Program-made: the position numbers and the translations under genes
In this document: piece after piece, positions 187 through 57,516 of the stretch
How the letters are laid out: the number at the start of each line of letters is the position of its first letter
Numbering within the stretch: the stretch's first letter is position 1
Virus record (IMG/VR): IMGVR_UViG_3300027609_000006
Coordinates: 1-58,096 of that record
DNA length: 58,096 bases
Reading direction: 5' to 3' (one strand)
Origin: a virus
Notes under the pieces: model-generated
Database searches by the model: none
Seen by the model: the letters and a program-made list of their open reading frames with translations, nothing else
Told to the model about the DNA's origin: nothing

Positions 187-240
187 TTGGCCTCGCCGCT
201 AACCGTTCTTCGCGTCGGACCGGGTGCGCTCGACATGGGC
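187..240 (-). repeat. SAR arm, R-form (variant CATGTCGAGCGCAC..GGCGAGGCCAA)
   Basis: Minus strand reads GCCCATGTCGAGCGCAC..GCGGCGAGGCCAACA. Lies in the 3' end of the GT2 ORF. Atypically 95 nt upstream of the next ATG (92 = 58089). Confidence 0.7.
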
Positions 241-897
241 AAGCAGCCTGCCCATTTGATAACGCTGTCTGATCAGGGTTCCGATTCCGTTTCTGTGGAC
301 TTCCTTGACCATCGATAGATCCTCCTTGATTCCGGCCATGAGACCGCGCTTTGTGCTTTTCGTAGGATTGCGGACGCCCGGCCATGGCACAACCCGAATC
401 GAGCAGCGCGCGCCGATGATCGCGCGGTTAATGGCGACCTCCATCCCCATCGATGGACAGAGTTCCAAATGGCATCCGAGCAGCATCCCGATTGGAAGGA
501 CTCGTTCTCCCGACAACACATCGAGCTCCATGCGGAAAACGCCGTAGGAGCGGCGCGAACTGATCGAGACATCCACTTCGCGATCCCGGACGGGGCGAAC
601 CAGCGCTTCTAAATCGGTTGGCGTTAGACCCTCCAGGTCCGCATCGAGCAGACAGACGGTATCGATGGACCACAGCAGTTTCGGCAACGCCCGAGCAACG
701 GCGGCGCTCTTGCCGCATCTCGGCAGCCTCAGCAGCTCTATGCCGGGGAAAGCCTGCACGGATTGCGCCGTTCCATCTTCCGATCCATCGTCCGAAACAA
801 CAATTCGGCTGAACAGGCTGGAGCCGACGGCAGCATCAAGCACTGCGGCGATTCTCGTTTCCTCGTTGTGGGCCGGGATGACGCATCCTATTTTCAT
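199..897 (-). CDS. Glycosyltransferase family 2-like
   Basis: ORF 199..1038 trimmed to MKIGCVIPAHNEE. Motifs: VSDDGSEDGT, LLDADL (DxD). The C-terminal tail is encoded by a SAR arm. Confidence 0.75.
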   Translation of the reverse strand: MKIGCVIPAHNEETRIAAVLDAAVGSSLFSRIVVSDDGSEDGTAQSVQAFPGIELLRLPRCGKSAAVARALPKLLWSIDTVCLLDADLEGLTPTDLEALVRPVRDREVDVSISSRRSYGVFRMELDVLSGERVLPIGMLLGCHLELCPSMGMEVAINRAIIGARCSIRVVPWPGVRNPTKSTKRGLMAGIKEDLSMVKEVHRNGIGTLIRQRYQMGRLLAHVERTRSDAKNG

Positions 898-1045
898 TTT
901 GTTCCGATATGAAAACGTGAAAGCCATGACTTGACGATGGGCACAGCGGAAGCTACAACCGCCTTCCGCGCGTCCCATCCTGCCGCAGCCAAGAATGGAA
1001 GATGGCTGAGTAACTTCGTGCGCAATGACGACAGCCACATATTTC

Positions 1046-1321
1046 TCATTCGACTAAGAGAGGGTTTTGATCCTTCGACAGGGATTCTGCCGCTTCCTCC
1101 ACCAATTGCCGCAAGCCGCCGATTAGCATATTCGTGGTCACGATTCCGCCGTTGCTTTCGAACTGGACTGACAAGTGCTCCCCGTCGTGACTGAATCGCA
1201 CGAATCCCATCGGGTGATCTGCCGTTCCGCGTTCCATGTCCACCGTGGCGCCGAATCCGCGCAATTGATCAGCGATCAGGGGAAGCGCGGCGGCGGGGCA
1301 TGGGAACATCACGGTCTTCAT
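1046..1321 (-). CDS. Hypothetical protein
   Basis: ORF 1046..1381 trimmed to MKTVMF. The ATG lies 8 nt after AGGGAG at the end of F-form arm 1328..1384. Confidence 0.45.
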   Translation of the reverse strand: MKTVMFPCPAAALPLIADQLRGFGATVDMERGTADHPMGFVRFSHDGEHLSVQFESNGGIVTTNMLIGGLRQLVEEAAESLSKDQNPLLVE

Positions 1322-1327
1322 CGATAT

Positions 1328-1384
1328 CTCCCTGTCGAACGGGAAAGGCCCCACCGAAGCATTTAACCACGATGAGGCCAAGCC
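1328..1384 (-). repeat. SAR arm, F-form
   Basis: Minus strand reads TTGGCCTCATCG..CCGTTCGACAGGGAG. Confidence 0.75.
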
Positions 1385-1385
1385 A

Positions 1386-1808
1386 TCAGGCAGCAGGTGC
1401 GCTGAAGTACAGAATATTCACGAACACCGGCAAGTACCCGCCAACCACGGGTCCAACGAAGTCTTGATCATTTACCGGCCCTCCAGACTGCGTTCCCTTC
1501 CCGACAGGCTCCCTGGTGTAGCCGTAGATCGTCACCCGTTCGTACATCGTTTCGTACGGATCTTCGCCCTGATAATCGATCTCTTCATCGTACGGGACGC
1601 CGGCTGCGGTGAGGCTGTTCGCGAGCGCGTCCCGCTGGTCTTGGGTAAGCTCGGTTCCGGTCTCGCCACCCGGGCGGTTATAGAAAAACGGTTGGAGCTG
1701 TGCGGAACGGCTCTGGTAATACGCTGTGTTGAATGCGGTCTGGTAATCGCTATTCGGAGGCCCCGGCGGAGGTGGGGGAGTGGGCATGGTGATTTGAGTA
1801 GGATTCAT
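1386..1808 (-). CDS. Hypothetical Pro-rich protein
   Basis: ORF 1386..1901 trimmed to MNPTQITMPTPPPPPG, downstream of an R-form arm. Confidence 0.6.
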   Translation of the reverse strand: MNPTQITMPTPPPPPGPPNSDYQTAFNTAYYQSRSAQLQPFFYNRPGGETGTELTQDQRDALANSLTAAGVPYDEEIDYQGEDPYETMYERVTIYGYTREPVGKGTQSGGPVNDQDFVGPVVGGYLPVFVNILYFSAPAA

Positions 1809-1823
1809 AGGTTTTCTTCTTTC

Positions 1824-1880
1824 TTTGGCCTCATTCGGCCTGAGTTTGCAAATCGGTTTCGGTGCGTTCGACAGTCGGAG
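1824..1880 (-). repeat. SAR arm, R-form
   Basis: Plus strand TTTGGCCTCATTCGG..GCGTTCGACAGTCGGAGG. GAGGCCAAAG sits 16 nt before ATG 1808. Confidence 0.8.
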
Positions 1881-2232
1881 GTTCGGACCCGCAATCGACA
1901 AAGGCCCAGACTACAGCCTTGAAGAGATGGTCTTTGATCCGCTGTTCTACCGGCAGCGCGTCGTATGGCACCATGCACGGATGTTCCTTTTTGTCGGGAT
2001 CCTTGATAGGCGCGAACTTCCATCCATCCCTGGTTTTGTCCGCCAACCATGCGTCATGCTGAGCAGAGGCCTCGGCTCCCGGATTGTCGATAGCGAACTT
2101 GACACCATTGATCGCGGAATCGCGCTGCCATTGGTCGGCAATCTCCCACGGCTTCTGTGAAAAGTCTCCGATGGATTCACAATATGCGCGATTCGTTTCG
2201 TGACACACCATAGCGATTTGTCGAACATCCAT
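1831..2232 (-). CDS. RyR-domain protein
   Basis: MVCHETNRAYCESIGD..PWEIADQWQRDSAINGV matches the phage RyR-domain pattern. Start lies 8 nt after the GGGAGGG of an F-form arm. Confidence 0.7.
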   Translation of the reverse strand: MDVRQIAMVCHETNRAYCESIGDFSQKPWEIADQWQRDSAINGVKFAIDNPGAEASAQHDAWLADKTRDGWKFAPIKDPDKKEHPCMVPYDALPVEQRIKDHLFKAVVWAFVDCGSEPPTVERTETDLQTQAE

Positions 2233-2240
2233 CACAAAAC

Positions 2241-2298
2241 CCTCCCATGTCGAACCCACAGCCTTAGACGCGAAGCGCTAGGCTCGGGTAGGCCAAAA
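2241..2298 (-). repeat. SAR arm, F-form
   Basis: Minus strand TTTTGGCCTACCC..GTGGGTTCGACATGGGAGGG, then TTTTGTG and ATG 2232. Confidence 0.8.
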
Positions 2299-2307
2299 CA
2301 AAAATCT

Positions 2308-2652
2308 TCAGTTCGTGATCAACCCCGAACCCTGACTCTTCAACTCCTCCAGCATCGCCTGCCGGATCGCGACTTCGCTTTTCAACTCTGCAATCGTAAC
2401 CTCGATCACAGCCCGCTCCGCCTTCTCCTGCTGCTGGTGCGTCGTGTTCCACAGCTTCACAGGTTCCGGTGTCACATCGGGCGAAGAGTGCGTGATGTAC
2501 CGCGCCAGGTAGGTCACCAGCCGCCGGGTCATGTCTGAGTGCTTCGTCAACGCCGCGAGCTTCTCCTGCTGCATACCGATCTTAGCTTCGAGCAGCTTGA
2601 TGGCGTTTTCTACTTGCAAGGGGTTTATGGGGATGGAGCGCGAAGGGTTCAT
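2308..2652 (-). CDS. Hypothetical coiled-coil protein
   Basis: ORF track. ATG is preceded by GAGGCCAAACC. Confidence 0.65.
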   Translation of the reverse strand: MNPSRSIPINPLQVENAIKLLEAKIGMQQEKLAALTKHSDMTRRLVTYLARYITHSSPDVTPEPVKLWNTTHQQQEKAERAVIEVTIAELKSEVAIRQAMLEELKSQGSGLITN

Positions 2653-2840
2653 GGTTTGGCCTCGCCGGGATTTGCGGCTCGGATTGGTACTGAAGGCTCG
2701 ACAGGGGAAACTACCTTTCGGATAAACGGATTGCGCATCGCAGGAAGAACACTATCTTTGCTTCTTTTTAAACATTTCCGCCAATTGCGCAAGAACGCCA
2801 AGTATTCCGGAGAATAGTTCGTGACGTAGATTTTGGTCAA
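2649..2840 (-). CDS. Small cassette ORF (start uncertain)
   Basis: Lies between an F-form arm (2845..2903) and an R-form arm (2653..2708). TTG start follows GGAGGGG. Ends ..NPGEAKP with an ATGA overlap. Confidence 0.35.
   Translation of the reverse strand: MTKIYVTNYSPEYLAFLRNWRKCLKRSKDSVLPAMRNPFIRKVVSPVEPSVPIRAANPGEAKP
2653..2708 (-). repeat. SAR arm, R-form
   Basis: Minus strand CCCCTGTCGAGCC..CGGCGAGGCCAAACC, then ATG 2652. Confidence 0.85.
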
Positions 2841-2844
2841 AATC

Positions 2845-2903
2845 CCCTCCTGGTCGTACGCACGATCGCACCCCGAAGCCACGGTGCCCTAAAAGGCCAA
2901 ACC
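2845..2903 (-). repeat. SAR arm, F-form
   Basis: Minus strand TGGTTTGGCCTTTTAGG..GCGTACGACCAGGAGGGG. Begins at the TGATG stop/start overlap. Confidence 0.7.
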
Positions 2904-2904
2904 A

Positions 2905-3429
2905 TCATCGCCTCCAAAACTCAAACCATCTCGGCTTAGCCCGAAGCATGATCCCCTGAGCCATCTCGAAAATGGTTGAGTTCCGCGCTTCCGCATCTGC
3001 GACATCTTCCTCGAAATGCTCTTTCATGAAGCTTCGGAACTGCGCCTGCTTCCGCTGATTCTCGATATGCGCGCGTCCGATGTCGGCCTGAATTGCGAGG
3101 GCGAGCTTGTTTGAAAACTCCGTCGAATATCCTAGCGCCAGTTCGCGGACCTGAAGGCGCACGATGCGGAATGGCTCAAGCGGTAACGCAGCGAGATCGG
3201 CAGCATGGTCTGCGGACCAATCGTCCAGTTCCTTTTCGAGGAAGTTGACTTTGTCGGCGACTTCGCCGGCGGGGAGTCCCATCACCGCCGCTGCTGCTTT
3301 CGTATCAACGTAGGAGAAGTTGTTTGATGTCATCTCCTCTTTTCCTCTCTGACCAGGTGGGAGTGAGTGCTTTTCCGGTTCGAACGGGATGCCGTCCTGG
3401 TTGGATGCTTTGGTGGTTTCTGTGCTCAT
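2905..3429 (-). CDS. Hypothetical protein
   Basis: ORF track, 174 aa. ATG preceded by GAGGCCAAACC. Confidence 0.7.
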   Translation of the reverse strand: MSTETTKASNQDGIPFEPEKHSLPPGQRGKEEMTSNNFSYVDTKAAAAVMGLPAGEVADKVNFLEKELDDWSADHAADLAALPLEPFRIVRLQVRELALGYSTEFSNKLALAIQADIGRAHIENQRKQAQFRSFMKEHFEEDVADAEARNSTIFEMAQGIMLRAKPRWFEFWRR

Positions 3430-3647
3430 GGTTTGGCCTCGGTCGGTATCGCGGTGCTGTCGAATTGCGTGCCCTCGACATGGGCAAACTGTGGACGCTC
3501 GGCGTAAAGAAATTTCCTAAGCTCCTCGGCGCACTTCGGGCACAAGTCGAGAAACTCTCCCGGTTGCCCTTCGGGCTGCAGTTTTACTGTAGTCCAAGGG
3601 CCGTCCTTGGTGGCCATGAAAGTCTTACACCAGTCGCAAGCCATCAT
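3426..3647 (-). CDS. Small zinc-ribbon protein
   Basis: MMACDWCKTF..CPKCAEEL. Ends ..IPTEAKP inside an R-form arm. Confidence 0.6.
   Translation of the reverse strand: MMACDWCKTFMATKDGPWTTVKLQPEGQPGEFLDLCPKCAEELRKFLYAERPQFAHVEGTQFDSTAIPTEAKP
3430..3486 (-). repeat. SAR arm, R-form
   Basis: Minus strand GCCCATGTCGAGGGCAC..CCGAGGCCAAACC, then ATG 3429. Confidence 0.85.
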
Positions 3648-3979: not shown

Positions 3980-3997
3980 GTCGGGAGGAATCACAAA

Positions 3998-4056
3998 CCC
4001 TCCCTGTCGAGCGCACACCGACCGACGCGAAGATCGATTAGCGGCGAGGCCAAAGA
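3998..4056 (-). repeat. SAR arm, F-form
   Basis: Minus strand TCTTTGGCCTCGCCGCTAATCG..GCGCTCGACAGGGAGGG. Begins at the TGATG overlap with the stop of 4059..4469. Confidence 0.8.
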
Positions 4057-4058: not shown

Positions 4059-4469
4059 TCAAATGATCTTCTCTCCCCACCAAGCTCCACCACCCGAAAC
4101 AATCATGCCGCCCGTACCTCGCTCCACTCCAACCCGATAATGCAGCCGGACCCGGTCACCCAGTTGCAGCGCCCAGAGTCCCTGCATGCAATGCGGACAA
4201 GCTCCCCGTGATTTCTGACGTTCCATTTCCCATACCGATGTTTTGCAGCGCGGACACCAGTAGATGTAAGTTTCCCCGATCAGCCGCATGTGCCCGTGGT
4301 CGGCGACCTGACCGATTTCTTTCGAGTCCGTTTTGATCAGGATCGAGTATTCCGTAACTTGCTCGACTCTGCCGAAGACAAAGATGGGTTTACCCCAGGG
4401 GTCCAGTTGCGTGGCTTTCCCTGGCAGGTGGCGGGTGAGTCCGATTTTGGGGTAGATCACTTCGCCCAT
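4059..4469 (-). CDS. Zinc-ribbon protein with shared C-terminal module
   Basis: CPRCKTS..CPHCMQ, plus the C-terminus shared with 3644..3979. Confidence 0.65.
   Translation of the reverse strand: MGEVIYPKIGLTRHLPGKATQLDPWGKPIFVFGRVEQVTEYSILIKTDSKEIGQVADHGHMRLIGETYIYWCPRCKTSVWEMERQKSRGACPHCMQGLWALQLGDRVRLHYRVGVERGTGGMIVSGGGAWWGEKII
4063..4152. repeat. Direct repeat copy 2
   Basis: See 3648..3737. Confidence 0.85.
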
Positions 4470-4798
4470 TTTTTGGCCTCTTTCGGCAGTTCGCTGCGCA
4501 TCGGCGGTTCTCGTTCCACATTCGTAGGTTGGATCGACTGCCGGCGGAACTCTTCGACCATTTGCAAGGCTTGAATCCAGGAGATGCTCTGTCGGATCGA
4601 GCCGGGGATATCGTTCTCGCTCGGCAGAACGATGGCCAGCCGGTTATCGTCGCAATAAACCATGCGAACGATTCCGGCTTTGCGCATCTCGATCAGACCG
4701 GTGATGATCGTCATTCGCGATTCGAAAGCGTCGAACTCCATCTGTCCCGATGGCGGGCGCCGGAGCCTTCCCAACTCGCAAATGAGATCCGCATTCAC
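4457..4798 (-). CDS. Hypothetical protein
   Basis: GTG start 9 nt after AGGAGG. GTGA overlap with the upstream ORF. Confidence 0.6.
   Translation of the reverse strand: MNADLICELGRLRRPPSGQMEFDAFESRMTIITGLIEMRKAGIVRMVYCDDNRLAIVLPSENDIPGSIRQSISWIQALQMVEEFRRQSIQPTNVEREPPMRSELPKEAKKWAK
4470..4528 (-). repeat. SAR arm, R-form, degenerate
   Basis: Plus strand TTTTGGCCTCTTTCGG..GTTCCACATTCGTAGG. AGAGGCCAAAAA then ATG 4469. Confidence 0.55.
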
Positions 4799-5226: not shown

Positions 5227-5239
5227 AGGGGTTCCTTTT

Positions 5240-5300
5240 TCTTTAGCCTCAGTCGAATTTGGTTTGCACTTCAGGTTCAGAGCGTTCGACCAGGAGTGGT
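5240..5300 (-). repeat. SAR arm, R-form
   Basis: Minus strand CCACTCCTGGTCGAACGCTC..GACTGAGGCTAAAG, 15 nt before ATG 5226. Confidence 0.8.
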
Positions 5301-5317
5301 TTTGGAGCGTTCACAGG

Positions 5318-5536
5318 CTATCCTCGTGAATTTTGCGCATCAATCAGCCGCTTCTCGCATTCCCAATCCTCAACCCCCAGAGTCACCAGCCAAGCCGGAG
5401 CCTGCCCGGAAGCGACATCGGGGCGATTCAGGATTTCGGCTTGTTCCCGCGCGCAACGCTCCACCGCTTCGCCTGGTCGAACGGGCAACCGGGCGGGCGT
5501 CAGATCGGTGCTCGATGAGGCTAATTCCAAATCCAT
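5318..5536 (-). CDS. Small cassette ORF (start uncertain)
   Basis: MDLELASSS..LPVRPGE is F-form arm translation. The body contains WECEKRL. Confidence 0.35.
   Translation of the reverse strand: MDLELASSSTDLTPARLPVRPGEAVERCAREQAEILNRPDVASGQAPAWLVTLGVEDWECEKRLIDAQNSRG
5467..5528 (-). repeat. SAR arm, F-form
   Basis: Minus strand GGAATTAGCCTCATCGAGC..CCCGTTCGACCAGGCGAAG. Confidence 0.7.
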
Positions 5537-6099: not shown

Positions 6100-6543
6100 A
6101 TGCGCAATATTTTGGCCTCATTCGGAATGTGGCTGACGCGTCGGTTCGGAATCGTTCGACCAGGAGAGGCACCGATTCCCCGCGTCCTAGTTCCAGCAGG
6201 ATCTACGATCATGGTCGATATTGGCGGGTCACCATACGAATACAGGGATTCCGACTTCTTTCGTGATGAACTGGCTATGGCGTACTGGCGCACAGGTCCG
6301 GAATGTTCGATGCGCATGGAGCACAGCATGTTCATTCCCCTGACGCCCTGGAATCCAGATCGGTTGTTTGCCTGCAAAAACTGTCACAAGGGTTTTAGTG
6401 CGATAGGTCCAGATGCCAAACCGATCGGGCTTCCCAAAGGGCAATTCCCGGCCTTTCGCATGGAGGAGTTTCGAGAGCCACCCTTAGCGCGAACGGAGGG
6501 GCAGACGGCCAAACCGAACGCCGAGGGGAGCGCCAAACCATGA
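6100..6543 (+). CDS. Cassette ORF, zinc-finger protein (paralog of 7804..8076)
   Basis: N-terminus MRNILAS..IVRPGE is F-form arm translation. Contains CKNCHKGF. C-terminus PLARTEGQTAKP..EGSAKP is a d-type R arm. Confidence 0.5.
   Translation: MRNILASFGMWLTRRFGIVRPGEAPIPRVLVPAGSTIMVDIGGSPYEYRDSDFFRDELAMAYWRTGPECSMRMEHSMFIPLTPWNPDRLFACKNCHKGFSAIGPDAKPIGLPKGQFPAFRMEEFREPPLARTEGQTAKPNAEGSAKP
6108..6169 (+). repeat. SAR arm, F-form
   Basis: TATTTTGGCCTCATTCGG..ATCGTTCGACCAGGAGAGG. Confidence 0.85.
6481..6539 (+). repeat. SAR arm, R-form, d-type
   Basis: CCCTTAGCGCGAACGGAGG..GAGGGGAGCGCCAAACC, then ATG 6540 (ATGA). Confidence 0.8.
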
Positions 6544-7022
6544 GTCCCTACGAGCTCGAAGTAGCAGCCTACGTAGCAGCTCACAAAATCTATGCTGGGC
6601 TTCCAACGCCAGATCGTCCATGTCCCGGAGGATACCGGTCACGAATGATTGATGAGATTGCGGAAGCGATCAAACAAGCATTTTCGGTGCATTTTTCTTT
6701 GGCCTCATCGGAATCGAGTCCTTCACCTGAAGTTGAGAGCGTTCGACATTCGGAGCTTTCTATTCCGGCGGTCTATGTCGCAAATGACCGCGAGTTCTGG
6801 GATGGCATGCATGCTCTTGAACAAACCCGACACTGGCGCACCCTGCGACACGCGTTAGACATGGGCGGCGGACACGGAATCACGGATCGACCCTGCCTCA
6901 AATGCGGAATGCCGGATCGTTTCACGATGCATTTTTCGCCCACCGGTGAACCGCTCCAACCTGCCCATGTCGAACCCACAATCTCCGACGAAGCCGCGAT
7001 CCCCGGTGAGGCCAAACCATGA
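6540..7022 (+). CDS. Hypothetical protein with an in-frame internal SAR arm
   Basis: ORF track, 160 aa. F-form arm 6696..6756 is read in frame with no stop. Contains CLKCGMPDRF. Ends ..IPGEAKP. Confidence 0.55.
   Translation: MSPYELEVAAYVAAHKIYAGLPTPDRPCPGGYRSRMIDEIAEAIKQAFSVHFSLASSESSPSPEVESVRHSELSIPAVYVANDREFWDGMHALEQTRHWRTLRHALDMGGGHGITDRPCLKCGMPDRFTMHFSPTGEPLQPAHVEPTISDEAAIPGEAKP
6696..6756 (+). repeat. SAR arm, F-form (inside an ORF)
   Basis: CTTTGGCCTCATCGG..GAGCGTTCGACATTCGGAGC. Confidence 0.85.
6964..7018 (+). repeat. SAR arm, R-form
   Basis: CCCATGTCGAACCCAC..CCGGTGAGGCCAAACC, then ATG 7019 (ATGA). Confidence 0.9.
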
Positions 7023-7294
7023 AAACCTTCTCCGAAGCCTGCGAATCCACCTTCATGCGAACAGTTCCGGTAGGTTCGGCAGACCACAAAAGCACTATGG
7101 AAGCCATCGATACACGCATAGGCCCGTTCATTTCAATGGTGGATGAAATCCAGAATGCGCCAGAAACCCACGCCTTTGCGGCCGTGCTGCTCGAAATGGC
7201 AAGCGGAGAAGATTTGAACATGGCCGAGGTTATCAAAATCGCCTTCTCCCACGGCGTGATGGTGGGAGTGGAAATGGAGAAGCCCGATGCTTAG
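7019..7294 (+). CDS. Hypothetical protein
   Basis: ORF track. Confidence 0.6.
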   Translation: MKTFSEACESTFMRTVPVGSADHKSTMEAIDTRIGPFISMVDEIQNAPETHAFAAVLLEMASGEDLNMAEVIKIAFSHGVMVGVEMEKPDA

Positions 7295-7807: not shown

Positions 7808-8076
7808 TCCGGCCTGTGGAATTGAAGCGGCTGTCTATTTGTCCATGCGGTTTTAGTACGTTGCGCGATGATATTTCGATCGGTAAAATCTACAATCTTG
7901 AAACATCCAGTTTGAACCGGGCGTTGTACGTATGCGGCGGGTGCCATCGCGGATTCAAGGTTGATGTGATCCAAGCCGACAATGGTCTCTGGCTTCCGCG
8001 CGATCTATTTACGCCCCTAGCGCGAACGGAAGAGCAGTCGGCAAAACCGGGATCCGAGGAGAGCGCCAACCCATGA
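7804..8076 (+). CDS. Zinc-finger protein (paralog of 6100..6543)
   Basis: Contains CGGCHRGF. C-terminus PLARTEEQSAKP..EESANP is a d-type R arm. Confidence 0.55.
   Translation: MIRPVELKRLSICPCGFSTLRDDISIGKIYNLETSSLNRALYVCGGCHRGFKVDVIQADNGLWLPRDLFTPLARTEEQSAKPGSEESANP
8014..8072 (+). repeat. SAR arm, R-form, d-type
   Basis: CCCCTAGCGCGAACGGAAG..GAGGAGAGCGCCAACCC, then ATG 8073. Confidence 0.8.
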
Positions 8077-10377: not shown

Positions 10378-10388
10378 AGGTGCTGAGA

Positions 10389-48312: not shown

Positions 48313-48328
48313 GGGGTGTATTTTACAT

Positions 48329-48389
48329 GATTTGGCCTCAAAGAGATAGGGGCTTCGCGCGGGGTTTGAAGCGTTCGACCAGGTGGGGT
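48329..48389 (-). repeat. SAR arm, R-form
   Basis: Minus strand CCCCACCTGGTCGAACGCTTC..CTTTGAGGCCAAATC, then ATGTAA. The real ATG 48312 lies 15 nt later. Confidence 0.8.
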
Positions 48390-48396
48390 TTTGCGG

Positions 48397-48918: not shown

Positions 48919-48978
48919 CCTTAGCGCGAACGGAAGTGCAGTCGCCCAAAACACTCAGACCGAGAAGAGCGCCAACAA
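48919..48978 (-). repeat. SAR arm, F-form, d-type
   Basis: Minus strand TTGTTGGCGCTCTTCTCGG..CCGTTCGCGCTAAGGATTC. Its 5' part encodes the peptidase C-terminus. Confidence 0.75.
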
Positions 48979-50076
48979 ATCATCTCCATTCGGTGCTCCC
49001 AATCCTGAACACGCATCCGGTCCTCTTCGTGCCGAGTACGTCCCATTCTCTCCCCGCGTGATGTCCACAAAGCAATTGGGATTCAGAAACAGCTTCGGAG
49101 TCACAAATCCCAGTTTTTTTCCGAACGACGCGAACAACCCCGCATACAGTGGCGCAACCGCGCTCGTGCCCCCGATCACTTGTGACTGACCATAGACCAC
49201 GATTTGATACCCAGTATTGGGATCGGCGTTGGCCGTGACATCGGGAACCATCCGACCCAATCCCGCCGGCGGCTTCGGCGCGCCAATCTGAAAACTCTGC
49301 ACCGGGAAGAACGTTGAGAACCCGCCACCTGTCCCTTCGCCATTAGTCGTTCCCGGATTGTTGTTCCAAACCGTTTCGGAGTTCGTGACCTTCGTGGTTC
49401 CTCCGCAACCAACCACATGGGGACAGGAAGCCGGCGCATCGACGTTTGCCGCATTTGGTCCGCCATCCGAGGAGTCGTTATCCCCCGCCGCCGCGAACAC
49501 CGCCATGCCCGCAGTAACGGCCGCCAGAGCCGCGCTCTCCATCTGCTGGAGCCCTGCGTTGCCCCAATCCGCTTCGTCAGCTCCCCAGGAGATCGAGCAC
49601 ACGTCGCAGCCGTCGTTCATTGCCGCAGTGAGAGCTGGTGCGATGTCTTGCGCCCAGTAGACGCGGATGTTCGCCTGTTTGCCGGTGGCGTGCTGGTAGG
49701 CTGCTGCTGCTACCTGGATGTCCAGCGCCACTTCGAAGTCTGCATCGTTCTGCGGGTTTTGCAGGGAGTTCTGTGTCCCGTCGACGGAGACGTCGGTGAT
49801 GTTGGGGACGGGTTGGTTGATCGATGCGAAGAACGCGGCCATGTCGGATTGGACCCAGCCGCCGCCCAGTTCGATGATCGCGATGGTTGCGCCGCCTGGT
49901 GCTGTGCTCACTGGGAAGTGGTAGGAACCTAAGAGGGTGGGGAGTTTCCAGGGGCCAGTGTGCGGGTTGGTGATGAGACGCTGGACTGCCGCCCATGCGG
50001 AATTAACATGCGGGGCTCTCTTGAAGTATGGATGGCATTTGATCTGCCGTTGGGTGGGAGAGGATTGGGAGTTCAT
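48955..50076 (-). CDS. Sedolisin/kumamolisin-like S53 serine-carboxyl peptidase
   Basis: DFEVALDIQ, CSISWG, IGGTSAVAPLYAG. Confidence 0.75.
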   Translation of the reverse strand: MNSQSSPTQRQIKCHPYFKRAPHVNSAWAAVQRLITNPHTGPWKLPTLLGSYHFPVSTAPGGATIAIIELGGGWVQSDMAAFFASINQPVPNITDVSVDGTQNSLQNPQNDADFEVALDIQVAAAAYQHATGKQANIRVYWAQDIAPALTAAMNDGCDVCSISWGADEADWGNAGLQQMESAALAAVTAGMAVFAAAGDNDSSDGGPNAANVDAPASCPHVVGCGGTTKVTNSETVWNNNPGTTNGEGTGGGFSTFFPVQSFQIGAPKPPAGLGRMVPDVTANADPNTGYQIVVYGQSQVIGGTSAVAPLYAGLFASFGKKLGFVTPKLFLNPNCFVDITRGENGTYSARRGPDACSGLGAPNGDDLLALFSV

Positions 50077-50079
50077 TTT

Positions 50080-50140
50080 TGTTTTGGCCTCATCGGGATT
50101 CGGGATTCACGTCGGATTGGGAGCGTTCGACATTCAGGGT
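50080..50140 (-). repeat. SAR arm, R-form
   Basis: Minus strand CCCTGAATGTCGAACGCTC..CCGATGAGGCCAAAACAAAA, then ATG 50076. Confidence 0.85.
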
Positions 50141-50676
50141 TTGATCATCGATTTCGCTTTGATCGAAGTAGCAGCCAATTTCTTCTGAAGCCCTCCCAGC
50201 GCGTGCCGGTCACCCATCGATAAACTCAACGGCTTCGACCCTTCCACGCTGTGCGCCAACTTCACAGCCGTCGGCGAATTGATCTGAGACAGGAACAACT
50301 GCACCGCCGACGCGATCGCGTTCACTAGCGCCTGCACTTCCGGCCCCACGGTTGGACCCAGCGCGGGAACGGCGACATCCGCGAAGTAACCGATGATCTT
50401 CGTGTCCATCACGGAAACTGGATCTTTCGTCAGCAGCTCCGCGGCCGATTGAGATGCTGCCGTGCTCACGGCGCCCGTGTACGCCAGAATAATGTTGCCG
50501 ATTCCAGAGGGTAGAATTCCCGATGCTTCGACAATTGGGACGGCTACGGTTGCCGCAGTGCACGCGTCGGAAAGGACGGTCAAATCGGTGGAGAGTTGAG
50601 AAGTGGAGCAGGCTGAGAGGATCAGGACTGCTACGAAGATGAGGGAAAGCAGAAAGATCGTGATTGTGTTTTTCAT
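50134..50676 (-). CDS. Putative lipoprotein
   Basis: MKNTITIFLLSLIFVAVLILSAC (lipobox-like LSAC). Confidence 0.6.
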   Translation of the reverse strand: MKNTITIFLLSLIFVAVLILSACSTSQLSTDLTVLSDACTAATVAVPIVEASGILPSGIGNIILAYTGAVSTAASQSAAELLTKDPVSVMDTKIIGYFADVAVPALGPTVGPEVQALVNAIASAVQLFLSQINSPTAVKLAHSVEGSKPLSLSMGDRHALGGLQKKLAATSIKAKSMIKP

Positions 50677-51747: not shown

Positions 51748-51966
51748 TCATTTTGAATCGGCCTCCGTCGGCTTTGTGGCTTCGTGCGGCGTGTCTCGCC
51801 CGACCATGAGGGAATCTTTTTGGGCTTTGAGGAAAGCCACTCCTTCCTCAGCAGTGTAGGGGCACCGGGTAGAGCCGAAGTGGATTCCTCCACAATTAGG
51901 ACAGTCCCCCACCTGGTGGAACGCATTCGACGCCGCGCGAAGAGTCGATCCCGATGAGGCCAACAT
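51748..51966 (-). CDS. Cassette ORF, zinc-ribbon protein
   Basis: MLASSGS..FHQVGD is F-arm translation. Contains CPNCGG..TRC. C-terminus ..MVGRDTPHEATKPTEADSK is R-arm translation. Confidence 0.5.
   Translation of the reverse strand: MLASSGSTLRAASNAFHQVGDCPNCGGIHFGSTRCPYTAEEGVAFLKAQKDSLMVGRDTPHEATKPTEADSK
51755..51815 (-). repeat. SAR arm, R-form
   Basis: Minus strand GATTCCCTCATGGTCGGGCGAG..GCCGACGGAGGCCGATTC. Its tail AAAATGAAA is the TIR target. Confidence 0.85.
51906..51966 (-). repeat. SAR arm, F-form (translated)
   Basis: Minus strand ATGTTGGCCTCATCGGGATCG..AATGCGTTCCACCAGGTGGGGG. Confidence 0.85.
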
Positions 51967-51971
51967 AAAAC

Positions 51972-52225: not shown

Positions 52226-53320
52226 TCAAACGAGTGGTCTTTCCGATCCGTAGAGGTTCGGATCGTCTTCCGTGCGGGACACGAAGTATTGGCGGATTTC
52301 ATCACGCAGCGCCGGTTTGTTCGGGGTCAACTGGAGAATACCCTGCGAATCCGGGAATACATCCGTGTACGGGGAATACTGATGCTTCGCGAGGATCTTG
52401 TCGCGCGATGAATACGCCCGCCGCGTCTTCGATCCGTGAAAGAAGTGGTTTGCGTGCCCATCCACATACCCAACGTTTTTCTTGATGACCTGTGCGCGCT
52501 CGCGCCAGCTCTCGACATAATGTTTGTAGTCGGGGTGGTAGTTCTGGGTATGGATATCAGGCGGTTGAATGCCTACCAGAGAATAGGCCACGTACCAATC
52601 AGCGTGTCCCAGGATGCAGCGATTCGGGAATCCTCCGACCGCATCGAATGCCGTTTTGCGAAATGCGATCGCGCCTCCGGTTGCTCCCACGCCGCGGCGG
52701 AACATCGCGCCCTCGTAACCGTCTTCATCCACGACACCATTCGGCACGTTCGAGTTATGGAAGACCGGAGAAACTTCGAAGCCGTTCTGGTGGTAGTTGA
52801 AAAAGAAACCGGAGTTGTAGTGCACCGGCAGATTTTTTTGGCCGTAGATGTTTCCGGAGAGGTCCGCATAGCTCGAAAAGCATTGGACGAAATCGTAATG
52901 CTGGAGCTGGTGGATGGTTTCGAGCGCCCAGTCGTGCCGGGTAAAATGGAAATCTGCGTCGATCATGGCGCCATACTTCCATCCCACATCGAAGTTTTGG
53001 ATCACCCGGTTGGCGATGTCCTCTTTGTGGAAGAGTTCGCAGGTGGTGCGCAGCGGGATGCTGACAATTGGTCGGACGAAGTGTCCAATGTCTTCCGCGA
53101 TCTCGAAGGGGCGGGCGCCGTACGCCAGTTCACCCACGTACACTTTCACGTTCGGACTGTTTCGCAGATGCCGGATGCAGTTGTTCGCCAACTCGCGCCG
53201 GGTTCTCCACCGGAAAGGGTTGGAGTAGCAGACGGCGACGTGGAGGGTTTGGTCTTCAGACCACTCGGACCAGGGCGAGTGGATATCGGGATGATTAAGG
53301 GAGTGGTTTACCGGGGGCAT
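52226..53320 (-). CDS. Putative GT-A-fold glycosyltransferase
   Basis: AMIDADFHF (DxD-like), GATGGAIAFRKTAFDAVGGF. Confidence 0.5.
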   Translation of the reverse strand: MPPVNHSLNHPDIHSPWSEWSEDQTLHVAVCYSNPFRWRTRRELANNCIRHLRNSPNVKVYVGELAYGARPFEIAEDIGHFVRPIVSIPLRTTCELFHKEDIANRVIQNFDVGWKYGAMIDADFHFTRHDWALETIHQLQHYDFVQCFSSYADLSGNIYGQKNLPVHYNSGFFFNYHQNGFEVSPVFHNSNVPNGVVDEDGYEGAMFRRGVGATGGAIAFRKTAFDAVGGFPNRCILGHADWYVAYSLVGIQPPDIHTQNYHPDYKHYVESWRERAQVIKKNVGYVDGHANHFFHGSKTRRAYSSRDKILAKHQYSPYTDVFPDSQGILQLTPNKPALRDEIRQYFVSRTEDDPNLYGSERPLV

Positions 53321-53526
53321 TATGGTTTGGCCTTTTTGGGGTTCGCGCCTTGGACGGATTCTGATCGGACGACACTCGCGGGTTGCGGCTCGGAGAGATA
53401 TAAATCAAGAGCATCCTCCACCACTTCTCTCATGGAGCGCTCATCCGCCCGGGCTCGCGATCTCAGTCGCTCATGAAGTTCGGGGGACAGATTGAACGTC
53501 GCCTGCACGGTGGGTTCTGCTGGCAT
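53320..53526 (-). CDS. Ribbon-helix-helix (CopG/Arc-like) DNA-binding protein
   Basis: TVQATFNLSPELHERLRSRARADERSMREVVEDAL. Confidence 0.6.
   Translation of the reverse strand: MPAEPTVQATFNLSPELHERLRSRARADERSMREVVEDALDLYLSEPQPASVVRSESVQGANPKKAKP
53324..53356 (-). repeat. SAR arm, R-form, short variant
   Basis: Plus strand GGTTTGGCCTTTTTGGGGTTCGCGCCTTGG. AAGGCCAAACCATAATG junction at 53320. Confidence 0.55.
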
Positions 53527-53795: not shown

Positions 53796-53811
53796 CGGTA
53801 TCGCTCCAAAA

Positions 53812-53871
53812 CCCCACCTGGTCGAACGCCCTAAGTTGCGCGTAAAAACTCGATCCCGATGAGGCCAAATT
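53812..53871 (-). repeat. SAR arm, F-form
   Basis: Minus strand AATTTGGCCTCATCGGGATCG..GGGCGTTCGACCAGGTGGGG. Confidence 0.9.
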
Positions 53872-53887
53872 ATGCTCTTGCCTAAAT

Positions 53888-53904: not shown

Positions 53905-53932
53905 ATGGGAGTCATGAAAAAGTACACACTTA

Positions 53933-53993
53933 TTTTTTGGCCTCATTCGGCATGTGTTTTCACGCTGCCTTGCTCTCGTTCGACCAGGAGCGG
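53933..53993 (+). repeat. SAR arm, F-form
   Basis: TTTTTTGGCCTCATTCGGC..CTCGTTCGACCAGGAGCGG. Confidence 0.9.
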
Positions 53994-54020
53994 TTTGTGA
54001 TTCCAGGAGGAGTGTATCGT

Positions 54021-54629
54021 ATGATGCCCGGGCCACCGGTGCGCGACTTCGACGCTGACGAAGCGTCCCTGAAAGCGAACATCGCGCTGAACGAACGACT
54101 CGCGGATTCGATCTGGCGCATTCTCCCGGGGTTCGTGACCGACTCGGCAATCCAACGGATGGGCGGGATTGAAGGCATCGCGAATGTGTTGGAGGAATTC
54201 CACCGGACTTTTCGCGACTGGATGTGCCTAGGCCTTGAAGCAGAGCTCGAAACCCTGCGTGAAGAACGTGCCCGGCCGCCCCAAACATGGAAGCCTCCCA
54301 AGCCCACAATCGAGGAACTCGCATCCGCACAGATGAACGTGCAGCGGCTGGAAGACGCAATCGCGGCCATGGACAATTTGGGAGAGAAAGAAAGCTATGC
54401 GTTCGGAGCGTATGTCGCAATGATGCGCCCCATTCTTGAAGGCAGTGTGGATCAGGCCCGGAGTTATCTCAATTCTATGCAAGCGCGAATGGACGACACT
54501 GACGACGAAGCCATCGAAACCTCCGTGTCGAACGGACCAGTGGATGGCGAAGAGAAAAATCGCGATGAGGCCAAAATATGTGCAGCATGCGGACTATCGA
54601 CATCGGAGTGTACTTGCATTCCGTCCTAG
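54021..54629 (+). CDS. Hypothetical acidic protein
   Basis: AGGAGGAG lies 9 nt before ATG 54021. An R arm sits near its 3' end. Confidence 0.6.
   Translation: MMPGPPVRDFDADEASLKANIALNERLADSIWRILPGFVTDSAIQRMGGIEGIANVLEEFHRTFRDWMCLGLEAELETLREERARPPQTWKPPKPTIEELASAQMNVQRLEDAIAAMDNLGEKESYAFGAYVAMMRPILEGSVDQARSYLNSMQARMDDTDDEAIETSVSNGPVDGEEKNRDEAKICAACGLSTSECTCIPS
54521..54577 (+). repeat. SAR arm, R-form (inside the 3' end of an ORF)
   Basis: CTCCGTGTCGAACGGACC..CGCGATGAGGCCAAAAT, followed by an ATG at 54578. Confidence 0.75.
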
Positions 54630-56362: not shown

Positions 56363-56381
56363 CCATTCGCGGGATAGCCCC

Positions 56382-56438
56382 GCCATGTCGAACCCACCAA
56401 ACCTGACGTGAAAACGGATTAGCGGTGAGGCCAAACCA
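56382..56438. repeat. SAR arm at a convergent junction (R-form on the plus strand)
   Basis: CGCCATGTCGAACCCACC..AGCGGTGAGGCCAAACC. Confidence 0.85.
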
Positions 56439-56449
56439 TCCAAAAACGC

Positions 56450-57058
56450 CTACCTGGCAATCGCCCATCCACCCACCAACACGAGAGCCAACCCTCCGAC
56501 CAGCACTCCCCAGTCGGTGTCTGTGACTCCAGAGAAGTCTCCGGATGAGATTGCAGTTCCCAGATCGCTAAACGCCGTGTCCACCGAATCAAACACCCCC
56601 GACGTATCAACCGCCGGCACTCCCGCGGTTGCGTTTCCTGCCAGCGCATCGGCAATTGTGCTGTCTGGTGATACTCCGAGTGCGCTCGCGATCGTGTTGG
56701 CGTAGGCGGTGGGATCGTTCCCCGTCGGATTGCCGTTTGCGTCGGTTGCTGGCGCATACTTCGCCATCATCTGATTGATCGTCAGTCCCTGATTCGCGTA
56801 GGTTTGGATTTGGTTGACCAGCGCCTGTTCGCCGGCATCGTAGGTCGAAAAGGACGCGTAGTAGTATGGTGTACCCTTCATCGCAGGACCTTGTGTTGCT
56901 CCCGATTGCCCCATGTAGATCAGATTTCCCGGGTTGTTATTCGAATATGCCAGTGAGCCGGGATAGTAGCCTTCTACGGTTTGGATGGTCGAGGCGATGG
57001 TGGAGATGGCGGGTGATGTTTGTCCGAATCCTGAGAGGCCGATTAATCCGATGAGCAT
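56450..57058 (-). CDS. Tail-anchored protein with EG..NNPGNL domain (paralog of 10018..10377)
   Basis: N-terminus MLIGLIGLSGFGQT, then VEGYYPGSLAYSNNNPGNL, C-terminus WGVLVGGLALVLVGGWAIAR. Confidence 0.65.
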   Translation of the reverse strand: MLIGLIGLSGFGQTSPAISTIASTIQTVEGYYPGSLAYSNNNPGNLIYMGQSGATQGPAMKGTPYYYASFSTYDAGEQALVNQIQTYANQGLTINQMMAKYAPATDANGNPTGNDPTAYANTIASALGVSPDSTIADALAGNATAGVPAVDTSGVFDSVDTAFSDLGTAISSGDFSGVTDTDWGVLVGGLALVLVGGWAIAR

Positions 57059-57116
57059 GGTTTGGCCTCAGCGGGCAATGTGGCTTCGTGCGTCGTCTCG
57101 CGTTCGACATTCGAAG
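57059..57116 (-). repeat. SAR arm, R-form
   Basis: Minus strand CTTCGAATGTCGAACGCGAG..CCCGCTGAGGCCAAACC, then ATG 57058. It starts 3 nt after the tRNA 3' end. Confidence 0.9.
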
Positions 57117-57119
57117 TGT

Positions 57120-57194
57120 TGGAGCCTCTCCCGGGAATCGAACCCAGAACCTCCTGATTACGAATCAGGTGCTCTACCCTTGAGCTAGACAGGC
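57120..57194 (-). tRNA. trnT: tRNA-Thr (anticodon CGU), CCA encoded
   Basis: Minus strand GCCTGTC-TA-GCTC-AAGGGTA-GAGC-A-CCTGA-TTCGTAA-TCAGG-AGGTT-CTGGG-TTCGATT-CCCGG-GAGAGGC-T-CCA. Folds as a cloverleaf with one G-G mismatch in the acceptor stem. Confidence 0.9.
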
Positions 57195-57207
57195 CTTCTT
57201 CGAACGC

Positions 57208-57238
57208 ATTGTAACCAAACACTTTTATGGCATCGCAA
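57208..57238 (-). promoter_or_regulatory. Candidate promoter for the tRNA
   Basis: Minus strand TTGCGA-N19-TACAAT, with the -10 box 13 nt upstream of the tRNA 5' end. Confidence 0.35.
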
Positions 57239-57268
57239 ATAGGACACCAGCCGATAGGACACCAGCCG
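57239..57268. repeat. 15-bp perfect tandem duplication ATAGGACACCAGCCG x2
   Basis: Immediately upstream of the candidate tRNA promoter. Confidence 0.8.
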
Positions 57269-57458
57269 AAGGATGCTGGCATGGCGAGAACGAAACGTCT
57301 ATCCCGTATCAGTCGATTTACGACGCTCATCAGCCGATTGTGACGGGCACCTGGATTTCTATTCAACTGATCGCGGAATCGCTTGTCCCGTTTCTGGACC
57401 CCAACCAGTAGATAATGCTGGATGATGTGGCCTTTAGTGCAGAAGCGAAGCTTTATGC

Positions 57459-57516
57459 CGGCATGTCGAACGCTCCAAACTTCTGACGAAGCGCTCGACT
57501 GCGATGAGGCCGACAT
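57459..57516 (-). repeat. SAR arm, F-form
   Basis: Minus strand ATGTCGGCCTCATCGCAGTCG..GGAGCGTTCGACATGCCGGC. Confidence 0.9.

Follow-up and report, generated by a model that had tools for sequence, protein, structure and literature searches.

A dispersed palindromic element at gene junctions that may mark variable gene slots in a virus from soil

The IMG/VR virus record IMGVR_UViG_3300027609_000006, whose 58,096 nucleotides make up the window analyzed here, carries a family of ~60-nt repeat arms at its gene junctions. A preliminary description made from the letters alone had presented these arms as start-associated repeats with two mutually reverse-complementary forms, F and R, read in the direction of local transcription. 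It had missed that an arm is only one half of a larger palindrome, that pairs of arms in the order F→R bracket hypervariable cargo, and that whole elements have been gained or lost between related genomes. We lean, with modest confidence, towards reading the family as a palindromic element specific to one virus clade, which sits at gene junctions and marks variable gene slots; the anatomy of the element, the polymorphism of its junctions, the variability of its cargo and its conservation independent of orientation were all observed directly.

Arms, doublets and junction polymorphism

An iterated nhmmer profile run on both strands recovered 61 main-type arms, and a separate hidden Markov model (HMM) for the d-type arms, a second family inside the one genome, recovered five more. 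These 66 arms of ~60 nt total 4,500 nt, or 7.8% of the 57,997-bp unique genome, against the ~67 arms and 6-7% estimated by eye. A pattern search against shuffled controls, as the preliminary description had proposed, placed the motifs far above chance: TTTGGCCTC (≤1 mismatch) matched 64 times against 16.3 ± 4.3 in shuffles, GTTCGACCAGGAG (≤2 mismatches) 30 times against 1.7, and arm motifs were 4- to 18-fold commoner than in shuffled sequence. The R-orientation consensus reads CnAAAACCnCTCCTGGTCGAACGC..CGCGAAGC..CCGAyGAGGCCAAAnc and is usually followed by ATG; the consensus, sub-variants and d-type reported earlier all match our arm alignments. Conservation within the arms is concentrated in GTCGAAC, CGAAG and GAGGCCAAA, three blocks that follow one another at 21-23 nt with near-random sequence between them, and pairwise identity among arms is only ~55%. 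The arms lie at gene junctions on either strand (33 R-sense and 24 F-sense in the set used for conservation), and F and R mostly alternate, as had been noticed (41 of 56 neighbors, permutation p=0.0006). The nhmmer profile found no arm in 13.9-17.8 kb or 21.4-26.2 kb and one partial match at the edge of 43.0-44.7 kb, which leaves the first of two accessory islands described as arm-free intact and qualifies the second.

The arms combine into a larger unit. Among tight arm pairs (gap <40 nt) in this genome and its close relatives, 28 were F→R and one was R→F; 243 distinct arms were counted across the clade. Twenty-two distinct doublets align over ~155 nt, with outer ends TTTGGCCTC and GAGGCCAAA and inner ends CCAGGAG and CTCCTGG around a conserved center that is itself palindromic (..CCAGGAGAnGGTTTTc-TnCCCTCGAAGnAG-AAAAACCnTCTCCTGG..). 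An arm is one half of a ~150-nt imperfect palindrome, and the intact element is the F→R doublet. In this genome neighboring arms are also closer in F→R order (median 416 nt) than in R→F order (668 nt).

Two small features of arm sequence were seen along the way. The central block CGCGAAGC (arm alignment A1, columns 36-43, e.g. 12680-12688) contains the heptamer GCGAAGC, which forms an unusually stable DNA mini-hairpin, and 'CGAA' recurs every ~20 nt along the arm and again at the doublet center (TCGAAG).

Comparison with relatives (labeled L005-L039), which cover only part of the genome, showed that all five comparable doublet junctions were polymorphic, appearing as empty sites, doublets, F-cargo-R units or single arms. 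The doublet at 31049-31209 is present in this genome, L007 and L030 and absent from L028, where the two genes abut, and L029 retains a remnant at this junction (GGGCCTC-GAAG-GAGGCTTAAAGC-ATG) that consists of the two outer ends fused. A doublet at 8866-9025 of L016 is missing from the same junction in two other genomes. At 17.8 kb, this genome, L017, L020 and L029 have an empty doublet, while in L016 and L030 a 180-aa open reading frame (ORF) with its own Shine-Dalgarno (SD) sequence, start and stop sits exactly between ..CCAGGAGAAAGTTTTCG and GAAAAAACCTCTCCTGG.. of the two arms. At 29.7-30.0 kb there is a small ORF with an R arm in this genome, the R arm alone in L028, and nothing in five other genomes. 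Finally, the slot at 33.74 kb has a conserved F arm followed by unrelated interiors of ~60, 83, 110 and 181 aa in four genomes.

The cargo itself proved highly variable. Nine of the 11 cargo ORFs tested had no homologue in any relative compared, and no cargo ORF of this genome was matched at the corresponding slot in a relative. Cargo ORF 53937-54629 matches L005, and cargo 34829-35152 has homologues (87-90% amino-acid identity over the N-terminal 49 residues) in the 33.74-kb slot of L022 and L030; L009 carries homologues of it in both slots. Median coverage by relatives in translated searches was 0.30 in F→R interiors compared to 0.80 between units (Mann-Whitney U test, p=0.011). One slot (57519->57051) holds ~230 nt and a tRNA-Thr gene that runs at its 3' end right up to the R arm. 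Cargo lies at the center of the palindrome, is mostly ORFan, and can occupy different slots in different genomes. Duplication is also seen beside arms: a 299-nt duplication (39829-40127 / 40518-40816, 79% identity) gave a truncated ATPase paralog, the 123-aa ORF 40454-40825 (-), which corresponds to the N-terminal part of a HerA/FtsK-type ATPase and lies beside the full gene, with an R arm before each.

Under the reading we favor, the doublet is the unit that is gained and lost, and its center is the slot for a small lineage-specific gene or tRNA, in the order resident gene, F arm, cargo, R arm, resident gene; such a layout accounts for the alternating orientations and for arms that appear to bracket genes. 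In this reading the element is built to be harmless in polycistronic, translationally coupled operons. Its outer R-arm end supplies the downstream resident gene with an SD (GAGG), a 7-nt spacer and an ATG, often in an ATGA overlap, its inner F-arm end offers GGAG to the cargo, and stops are few on both of its strands. Arms may in this way serve as boundaries at which accessory genes can be inserted, lost, duplicated or swapped without breaking the expression of their neighbors.

The arms are listed below with the two other features that bear on them; E-values are from the nhmmer profile, or from the d-type HMM where stated.

177..245 (-), arm, R-sense, E=7e-13
1321..1389 (+), arm, F-sense, E=1e-10
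1817..1890 (-), arm, R-sense, E=3e-10
2233..2305 (+), arm, F-sense, E=5e-11
2647..2717 (-), arm, R-sense, ATG 2652, E=4e-10
2835..2909 (+), weak arm, F-sense by position, E=2e-4
3423..3496 (-), arm, R-sense, ATG 3429, E=6e-10
3990..4054 (+), arm, F-sense, E=2e-12
4465..4533 (-), arm, R-sense, ATG 4469, E=6e-6
5235..5308 (-), arm, R-sense, divergent region, ambiguous, E=6e-13
5462..5533 (+), arm, divergent region, ambiguous, E=4e-6
6106..6173 (-), arm, F-sense, crossed by the ORF running from ATG 6100 to the d-type arm at 6481, E=4e-13
6481..6545 (+), d-type arm, R-sense, d-type HMM E=6e-18
6690..6761 (-), arm, F-sense, E=7e-13
6956..7025 (+), arm, R-sense, junction GAGGCCAAACCATGA, ATG 7019, E=1e-13
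8014..8078 (+), d-type arm, R-sense, ATG 8073, d-type HMM E=7e-18
8389..8453 (-), arm, F-sense, inner GGGAGG, then GTG 8456, E=5e-11
9868..9944 (+), arm, R form ending a + operon, left boundary of the lone reversed gene, E=5e-11
10383..10454 (-), arm, R-sense for the reversed gene 10018-~10370, E=7e-10
12647..12713 (+), arm, R-sense, E=4e-12
12902..12970 (-), arm, F-sense, inner GGAGG, then ATG 12969, E=9e-8
13835..13890 (+), arm, R-sense, outer end truncated, E=1e-6
17822..17895 (-), arm, F half of doublet 17822-17977, E=6e-13
17902..17977 (+), arm, R half of doublet 17822-17977, GTG 17970, E=1e-11
19722..19795 (-), arm, F-sense, of F-ORF-R unit 19722-20024, E=5e-12
19954..20025 (+), arm, R-sense, ATG 20018, E=3e-7
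21237..21310 (-), arm, F half of doublet 21237-21393 (doublet fold z=-4.9), E=3e-13
21322..21393 (+), arm, R half of doublet 21237-21393, ATG 21388, E=3e-12
26267..26340 (+), arm, R-sense, ATGA overlap 26321, E=6e-13
27536..27601 (-), arm, F-sense, ATGA 27533, E=1e-8
29937..30005 (+), arm, R-sense, within a 285-nt ORF+arm insertion absent in relatives, E=1e-7 and alignment
31049..31123 (-), arm, F half of doublet 31049-31209, E=9e-11
31135..31209 (+), arm, R half of doublet 31049-31209, ATG 31202, E=1e-12
32776..32848 (-), arm, F-sense, inner GGGAGG, then GTG 32845, E=3e-10
33233..33291 (+), arm, R-sense, ATG 33285, E=7e-8
33744..33813 (-), arm, F-sense, of the 33.74-kb slot (cargo differs in every relative), E=3e-10
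34502..34577 (-), arm, F-sense, of unit ~34485-34832, E=2e-15
34776..34834 (+), arm, R-sense, ATG 34829, E=4e-10
35090..35154 (+), d-type arm, R-sense, ATG 35149, d-type HMM E=2e-18
35303..35376 (+), arm, R-sense, ATG 35373, E=5e-14
36917..36973 (+), arm, R-sense, E=2e-6
38634..38695 (-), d-type arm, reverse orientation, d-type HMM E=2e-11
38738..38809 (+), arm, R form ending a + operon, convergent junction, E=5e-13
39080..39150 (-), arm, R-sense, E=2e-9
40133..40197 (-), arm, R-sense, upstream of ATPase gene 39072-40133, E=7e-10
40820..40893 (-), arm, R-sense, upstream of the truncated ATPase paralog, E=1e-9
41241..41310 (+), arm, F-sense, inner GGAG, then GTG 41241, E=7e-11
41893..41954 (-), arm, R-sense, upstream of the serine recombinase gene, E=1e-7
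42148..42175 (+), partial arm, inner end only, E=7e-3
42890..42956 (+), arm, F-sense, start 42882, E=3e-11
44787..44828 (-), partial arm, E=4e-5
44907..44970 (+), arm, F-sense, E=1e-9
45925..45996 (-), arm, R-sense, ATG 45931, E=7e-10
46170..46235 (+), arm, F-sense, of unit 45928-46230, E=2e-7
48322..48395 (-), arm, R-sense, upstream of a 689-aa gene, E=5e-13
48919..48976 (+), d-type arm, F-sense in a - operon, d-type HMM E=7e-9
50076..50147 (-), arm, R-sense, ATG 50076, E=6e-15
51748..51818 (-), arm, R half of loose doublet 51748-51970, E=8e-9
51901..51970 (+), arm, F half of loose doublet 51748-51970, E=2e-10
53318..53367 (-), weak partial arm, E=1e-2
53804..53877 (+), arm, divergent region, ambiguous, E=5e-13
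53928..54000 (-), arm, divergent region, R for the - gene starting at 53927, inner GGAG before GTG 53997 of a would-be + gene, E=1e-11
54513..54583 (+), arm, R-sense, E=3e-9
56374..56442 (+), arm, convergent junction, E=8e-13
57051..57123 (-), arm, R-sense, ATG 57058, abuts the tRNA-Thr 3' end, E=3e-11
57455..57519 (+), arm, F-sense, of the tRNA-holding unit, E=3e-9
57120..57194 (-), tRNA-Thr(CGT), cargo of the F...R unit 57519->57051, ARAGORN and Rfam, 62.4 bits
41238..41900 (-), small serine recombinase, 220 aa, Pfam Resolvase 1.7e-40, best PDB match Gin invertase 2.6e-26

Translation signals, RNA pairing and conservation

The arms might instead be mainly translation-initiation and coupling modules that supply an SD in either orientation and couple a stop to the next start, and the data at gene starts are in keeping with this. 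An ORF of at least 50 codons starts 2-27 nt after GAGG in 26 of the 33 R-sense arms, exactly 7 nt after it in 14 of those 26, compared to 10.6 ± 2.7 (maximum 18) for random positions; when F-sense arms are scored likewise on the strand they lie on, only 2 of 24 qualify. Instead, 10-12 of the 24 F-sense arms have a start 4-10 nt past the inner GGAG, including those at 8456, 12969, 32845, 41241 and 42882. About 22 R-sense arms are crossed by the upstream ORF, which reads GAG-GCC-AAA in frame and has its stop 12-27 nt beyond GAGG. Arms often show stop/start overlaps of the ATGA type, and ATGA, TTGA and GTGA overlaps occur at both doublet ends; some doublets form complete mini-ORFs of ~51 codons with overlapping stop and start at each end (21233-21388, ~17821-17972, 31056-31228). 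Finally, every arm of a GTCGGRC...GGAGGCC subfamily, which has a perfect GGAGG, takes the R orientation with respect to the operon upstream; a gene start follows eight of these arms, and two (9868-9944 and 38738-38809) end an operon with no start downstream. A ATGAGGCC subfamily is mostly F-sense. These results bear out the preliminary description in placing arms at gene starts, in finding the purine block of the F form shortly before starts and in having the ORF that reads through an R arm stop at the junction.

Read-through as such proved uninformative about translation. Doublets are free of stops as often in sense (19/22) as in antisense (18/22), arms average 1.94 and 1.93 open frames on the two strands, and a 157-codon ORF (57043-57516) stays open across the tRNA-Thr gene; because antisense is equally stop-free and one 'ORF' crosses a tRNA gene, the read-through ORFs are no proof of translation, and we rejected sense-specific translation of the arms. 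Arms are nonetheless poorer in stops than their own shuffles (1.95 open frames versus 1.54, sd 0.07), and openness in either orientation seems to be a property of the family. A conserved arm peptide was likewise rejected: similar arms translate differently (LLVGR versus WSGA) through 1-nt indels, which places arm conservation at the nucleotide level.

The pattern of that conservation is what an SD role does not account for. Of the 24 F-sense arms, 23 retain GAGGCC and 22 retain GTCG, motifs that there lie on the wrong strand or at the wrong end to act as an SD, and column by column the information content of the 33 R-sense arms is much like that of the 24 F-sense ones (r=0.90). Neutral decay from a single ancestor would not give the three-block pattern, and a ribosome-binding site (RBS) would not require that pattern in both orientations. 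Moreover, 58 nt with three blocks far exceeds what an RBS needs, an arm family in the distant relative L037 keeps the architecture without GAGG at SD distance, and the same junctions work without arms in relatives, which use ordinary SDs. The ambisense SD proposed in the preliminary description stands to the extent that both ends carry an SD-like block at workable distance from real starts, with overlaps common; RBS supply as the purpose of the repeat does not, and we regard an account of the arms as mainly initiation modules as unlikely. How these signals fit the element we favor, a junction unit with a central slot, is seen by comparing filled and empty sites at the L016 8866-9025 junction. 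Empty sites read ..GGAGGCCnnnG-ATG-A.. and the filled site reads ..GGAGGCCGACG-ATG-ATGC[TTTGGCCTC...CGGAGGCCAAATC]ATG-AGC.., so that an SD and ATG stand on both sides of the unit: the left pair opens the ORF that enters the element, and the resident gene uses the right pair, which is the R arm's outer end.

We also considered whether the arms act in RNA, with F and R arms pairing in polycistronic mRNA as doublet hairpins or long-range stems that sequester the SD (UUUGGCCUC with GAGGCCAAA), thereby coupling or regulating translation, or that create RNase III/E processing or stabilizing sites. Doublets do fold as long RNA hairpins (z=-4.5 to -4.9) in which the next gene's SD is covered by a basal helix, UUUGGCCUC/GAGGCCAAA, below an apical helix of 13-17 bp, and the L029 remnant retains just the SD-sequestering mini-hairpin. 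Transition mismatches between F and R halves on the sense strand include an excess of G.U over A.C in the apical helix (54 versus 33, p=0.03, with copies that are not independent), but the middle region shows the opposite and whole arms are balanced (90 versus 95), leaving selection on sense-strand RNA without support. Within the arm, RNAalifold gave no consensus structure for 57 arms; a GTCGRRC/YYCGAY stem seen by eye was paired in 53%, the same as in shuffles, and was rejected, and apparent intra-arm covariation stems from subfamily structure. Partner-specific complementarity, or terminal inverted repeats (TIRs) made from one copy, was rejected too, since partners are no more complementary than random arms (identity at variable columns 0.34 versus 0.38), and hybrid units of a main-type F arm with a d-type R arm occur. 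Hairpin potential is thus what any DNA palindrome gives, and selection for RNA pairing is unproven; overall, RNA-level function strikes us as an improbable main explanation. At the arms there was no Rfam family (only the tRNA passes the gathering threshold, with nothing at E≤1 in 17.7-21.5 kb). Likewise, there was no terminator-like site at the arms and no promoter-like signal (6 sigma-70-like sites in 20 kb versus 8.6 expected).

Turnover and distribution of the element

Several observations weigh against our reading of the arms as slot markers. No transposase or integrase was found among ~50 ORFs scanned with Pfam, PHROGs and NCBIfam, nor a tyrosine recombinase or Y1 transposase of the REP-associated (RAYT) kind; a mobilizing enzyme, if there is one, may be encoded by the host. 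The arms contain no recognizable serine-recombinase site. Two filled/empty junctions showed no target-site duplication (TSD), although ~25% divergence limits the power of this comparison, and their only repeated feature was the SD+ATG module, which is part of the element end. No two arm copies are nearly identical (the most similar agree at 88-91% over 45-52 nt), and partner arms resemble each other no more than arms paired at random, so nothing points to recent copying. The contigs assembled from the three samples match at 100%, and no ongoing rearrangement or inversion variant is seen. Finally, a purely regulatory role, through RNA hairpins or protein binding, could coexist with the boundary function or replace it.

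The only recombinase in the genome is the 220-aa serine recombinase, which is most similar to Gin invertase and is no more than a candidate trans factor of the arms. The arms could then be the crossover sites of a Gin-like invertase, with F...R units as invertible switches in a genome-wide shufflon. Genes are indeed flanked by inverted repeats, and one lone reversed gene, 10018-~10370 (-), lies in a plus-strand operon between the inverted arms 9868-9944 (+) and 10383-10454 (-), which is what inversion between arms would produce. Nevertheless, the invertase-type dyad site CAAAACCNNGGTTTTG (≤3 mismatches) had 5 matches against 2.9 expected, none of them at arms; cargo was on the same strand as the operon in the units examined; the three-sample assemblies are identical; and the arms are only ~55% identical to one another. 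We consider the invertase account very improbable.

We infer that slot content may turn over when arms of co-infecting relatives recombine, when the palindrome center breaks and is repaired, or in both ways. Long palindromes are fragile and prone to central deletions and insertions, and both the L029 remnant and the location of cargo at the center fit breakage and repair there. The conserved blocks, ~21-23 nt apart, and their lineage-specific variants suggest a recognizing factor, and would reflect a clade-specific factor acting on DNA or a recombination process. Alternatively, the arms could be DNA binding sites for a viral or host protein (a 'stoperator' repressor, a nucleoid or packaging protein, or a replication factor) with no part in gene turnover. 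Conservation independent of orientation, blocks about two helical turns apart, and lineage variants that keep the architecture, as expected under coevolution with a protein, all accord with binding; however, binding leaves the doublet as indel unit, the central cargo and the variable slot content unexplained, and no candidate binding protein was identified. We hold pure binding to be distinctly unlikely. At the other extreme, the element could belong to a dedicated genome-wide platform for gene acquisition, a distributed, integron-like viral system in which a clade-specific enzyme would read the blocks or the folded palindrome and insert or exchange promoterless cassettes (ORFans, tRNAs) at the center, the element ends guaranteeing translational coupling on both sides; this stronger form of the slot-marker reading we regard as doubtful.

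The distribution of the arms followed the relatedness of the viruses. Relatives with at least 70% amino-acid identity in the glycosyltransferase carry this genome's family, with 0.3-1.7 arms per kb, and a profile search did not find it in more distant relatives. These have arm families of their own, with the layout kept and the sequence different:

L037, 1595-20231, arm family
L033, 14537-21098, arm family
L038, 9942, arm family
L039, 6131, arm family

The L037 family (CGGGGAACGACC..CGTGAAAC..GGTGTCGCCAAnC) occurs in both orientations with its outer end abutting ATG ('GTCGCCAAACCATCATGA'), and has no GAGG or other SD at the proper distance despite this adjacency to start codons; the L033 family reads ..GAGAAGAGCGCCAA. 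A core of GAAC...CGnGAA...GCCAA, then ATG, is common to the families. Among the matches listed, cellular genomes gave single chance-level pattern matches only, and the profile matched at two of 120 cellular loci, once each, with no locus holding several arms, which led us to reject a host origin from repetitive extragenic palindromic (REP)-like elements. The 23-base doublet-center pattern was found in only 11 metagenome stretches, the largest a contig of 62.9 kb. From this distribution, the arm family appears to be viral, specific to the clade and subject to concerted evolution in each lineage.

Genome context and known repeat systems

The contig has an exact 99-nt terminal overlap (bases 1-99 identical to 57998-58096), indicating a circular or circularly permuted genome, and a G+C content of ~56%. 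The 58.1-kb contig was recovered from three soil samples, with identity measured over the parts compared, and we treat it as the genome of an uncultivated soil virus; syntenic contigs of 41-63 kb are found in IMG/VR, and a phage collection search found no near relative among deposited phages. Most proteins match nothing in library scans, and four large ones had no PDB sequence match. Recognized genes encode two HerA/FtsK-type ATPase paralogs (one truncated), a subtilase, several glycosyltransferases, a GH43 hydrolase, a D12 DNA methylase, an S-adenosylmethionine (SAM) methyltransferase, a PIN protein, a DUF3800 protein and the small serine recombinase, along with the one tRNA-Thr.

Two islands without full arms, 13.9-17.0 kb and 43.0-44.7 kb, have lower G+C (50-52%) and look like recent acquisitions; the first carries the DUF3800 protein and a 526-aa protein with no assigned function, and the second the PIN-domain protein and a 260-aa protein. 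Other repeats were seen besides the arms. A 21-nt tandem repeat, TCGGCAGAATCTCCCGGTACG, at 10842-11025 (core 10943-11016) has 3.5 near-perfect copies with degenerate copies on both sides; it may represent an iteron-like origin or, within ORF 10607-11422, a coding repeat of 7 codons. A 42-nt tandem repeat (51161-51310, 3.6 copies, 86% matches) lies inside the D12 DNA methyltransferase ORF 50684-51712 (-), a 112-nt direct duplication (3638-3749 / 4053-4164, 87% identity) adjoins arms in the left-hand minus-strand operon, and a 15-nt tandem repeat (2.4 copies, 57239-57273) lies just upstream of tRNA-Thr. Distant relatives share a ~60-nt coding repeat (..GDLVPS.PGLPFWP..GMG..), in several copies each at similar positions, which is probably a repeated peptide motif in structural or fiber-like proteins:

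L033, 8074-8201 and 13599-13654, ~60-nt coding repeat
L034, 7832-8437 and 13445-13508, ~60-nt coding repeat
L037, 8089-8289 and 13534-13596, ~60-nt coding repeat

The density and layout of the palindromic arms are unusual for a virus. Structurally, the element resembles palindromic repeats of the ERIC (enterobacterial repetitive intergenic consensus) and Correia type and MITEs (miniature inverted-repeat transposable elements). ERIC, Correia and BIME (bacterial interspersed mosaic element) repeats are 100-160-nt imperfect palindromes with many copies in either orientation at transcribed intergenic sites near starts and stops; they can form RNA hairpins, also exist as partial copies, and are families of cellular chromosomes. 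The element here, in contrast, appears confined to a virus clade, reaches ~1 per kb and has genes in the palindrome center, and unlike ERIC and Correia repeats it has no TA or other target duplication at the two junctions compared. It also differs from REP/BIME repeats, which are built of ~35-nt hairpin units and associated with RAYT, in that a single arm is not a hairpin and no such transposase was found. The attC sites of integrons are imperfect palindromes of 57-141 nt that delimit promoterless cassettes, mostly of unknown function, in a co-transcribed array, with one attC after each cassette in the same orientation, beside the tyrosine integrase IntI and attI; here the cargo is inside a split palindrome, the sites are genome-wide with alternating orientation, and no tyrosine recombinase was found. 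Rickettsia palindromic elements (RPEs) are tolerated in or overlapping ORFs by staying open in frame; they insert within cellular genes and have no start or SD signals and no cargo. Our element shares their palindromic form and open frames but has both start/SD signals and cargo.

The closest functional analogue of the arms is the promoter-early stem-loop (PeSL) cassette of T4-type phages, of which a genome has ~50 scattered copies (Arbiol et al. 2010, PMC2839356). Like the arms, PeSLs are concentrated at boundaries of ORFan or variable genes and end with an SD and a downstream start codon, and close relatives differ at them by insertions, deletions and replacements (PMC2839356). However, PeSLs combine a sigma-70 promoter with a terminator stem-loop in one orientation, as direct repeats that recombine into mini-circles (PMC2839356), whereas the arms have no promoter or terminator signal and no intra-arm stem-loop, form inverted pairs with cargo inside the palindrome, and are crossed by ORFs. 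Viral MITEs (vMITEs), short non-autonomous, TIR-flanked, multi-copy elements, have been surveyed in viral contigs, and an unusually high number, 99, was listed for those phages of IMG/VR whose assignment is to the soil group Acidobacteriae UBA7540 (Nadal-Molero et al. 2024, PMC11602168); these phages may or may not be the clade described here. vMITEs are reported to be rare (0.18 per kb in positive viruses, mostly two each) and often shared with the host (PMC11602168). The ~155-nt doublet is MITE-like in having TIRs, small size, many copies and no transposase inside, but differs in its density of ~1 arm per kb, with no host copy, no TSD and no transposase found. The start-associated sequences (SAS) of cluster K mycobacteriophages are 13-bp asymmetric sites (GGGATAGGAGCCC) 3-7 bp upstream of starts in 11-19 copies, essentially in one orientation, and in the extended form (ESAS) a pair of local 17-bp inverted repeats is present as well (Pope et al. 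2011, PMC3203893). They share with the arms an SD-like core near starts, an upstream stop often inside, a lineage-specific consensus and a suspected DNA-binding role (PMC3203893). The arms, in contrast, are ~60 nt long, have another consensus and occur in both senses (33 R, 24 F), and SAS/ESAS lack 60-nt arms, palindromic doublets, cargo and indel behavior.

The arm family is useful as a marker for recruiting members of an uncultivated soil virus clade, and its lineage-specific versions offer a comparative system for finding the factor that recognizes it. Little is understood of how viruses gain and lose small ORFans without wrecking packed, translationally coupled operons. In this genome, ~8% of the sequence belongs to one repeat family that marks differences in gene content and whose ends carry signals for the expression of neighboring genes. 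If it is true that the arms promote cassette exchange, they would solve, in a second and structurally different way, the same problem as PeSLs do in T4-type phages, and would be a natural 'plug-in' junction design usable in phage engineering.

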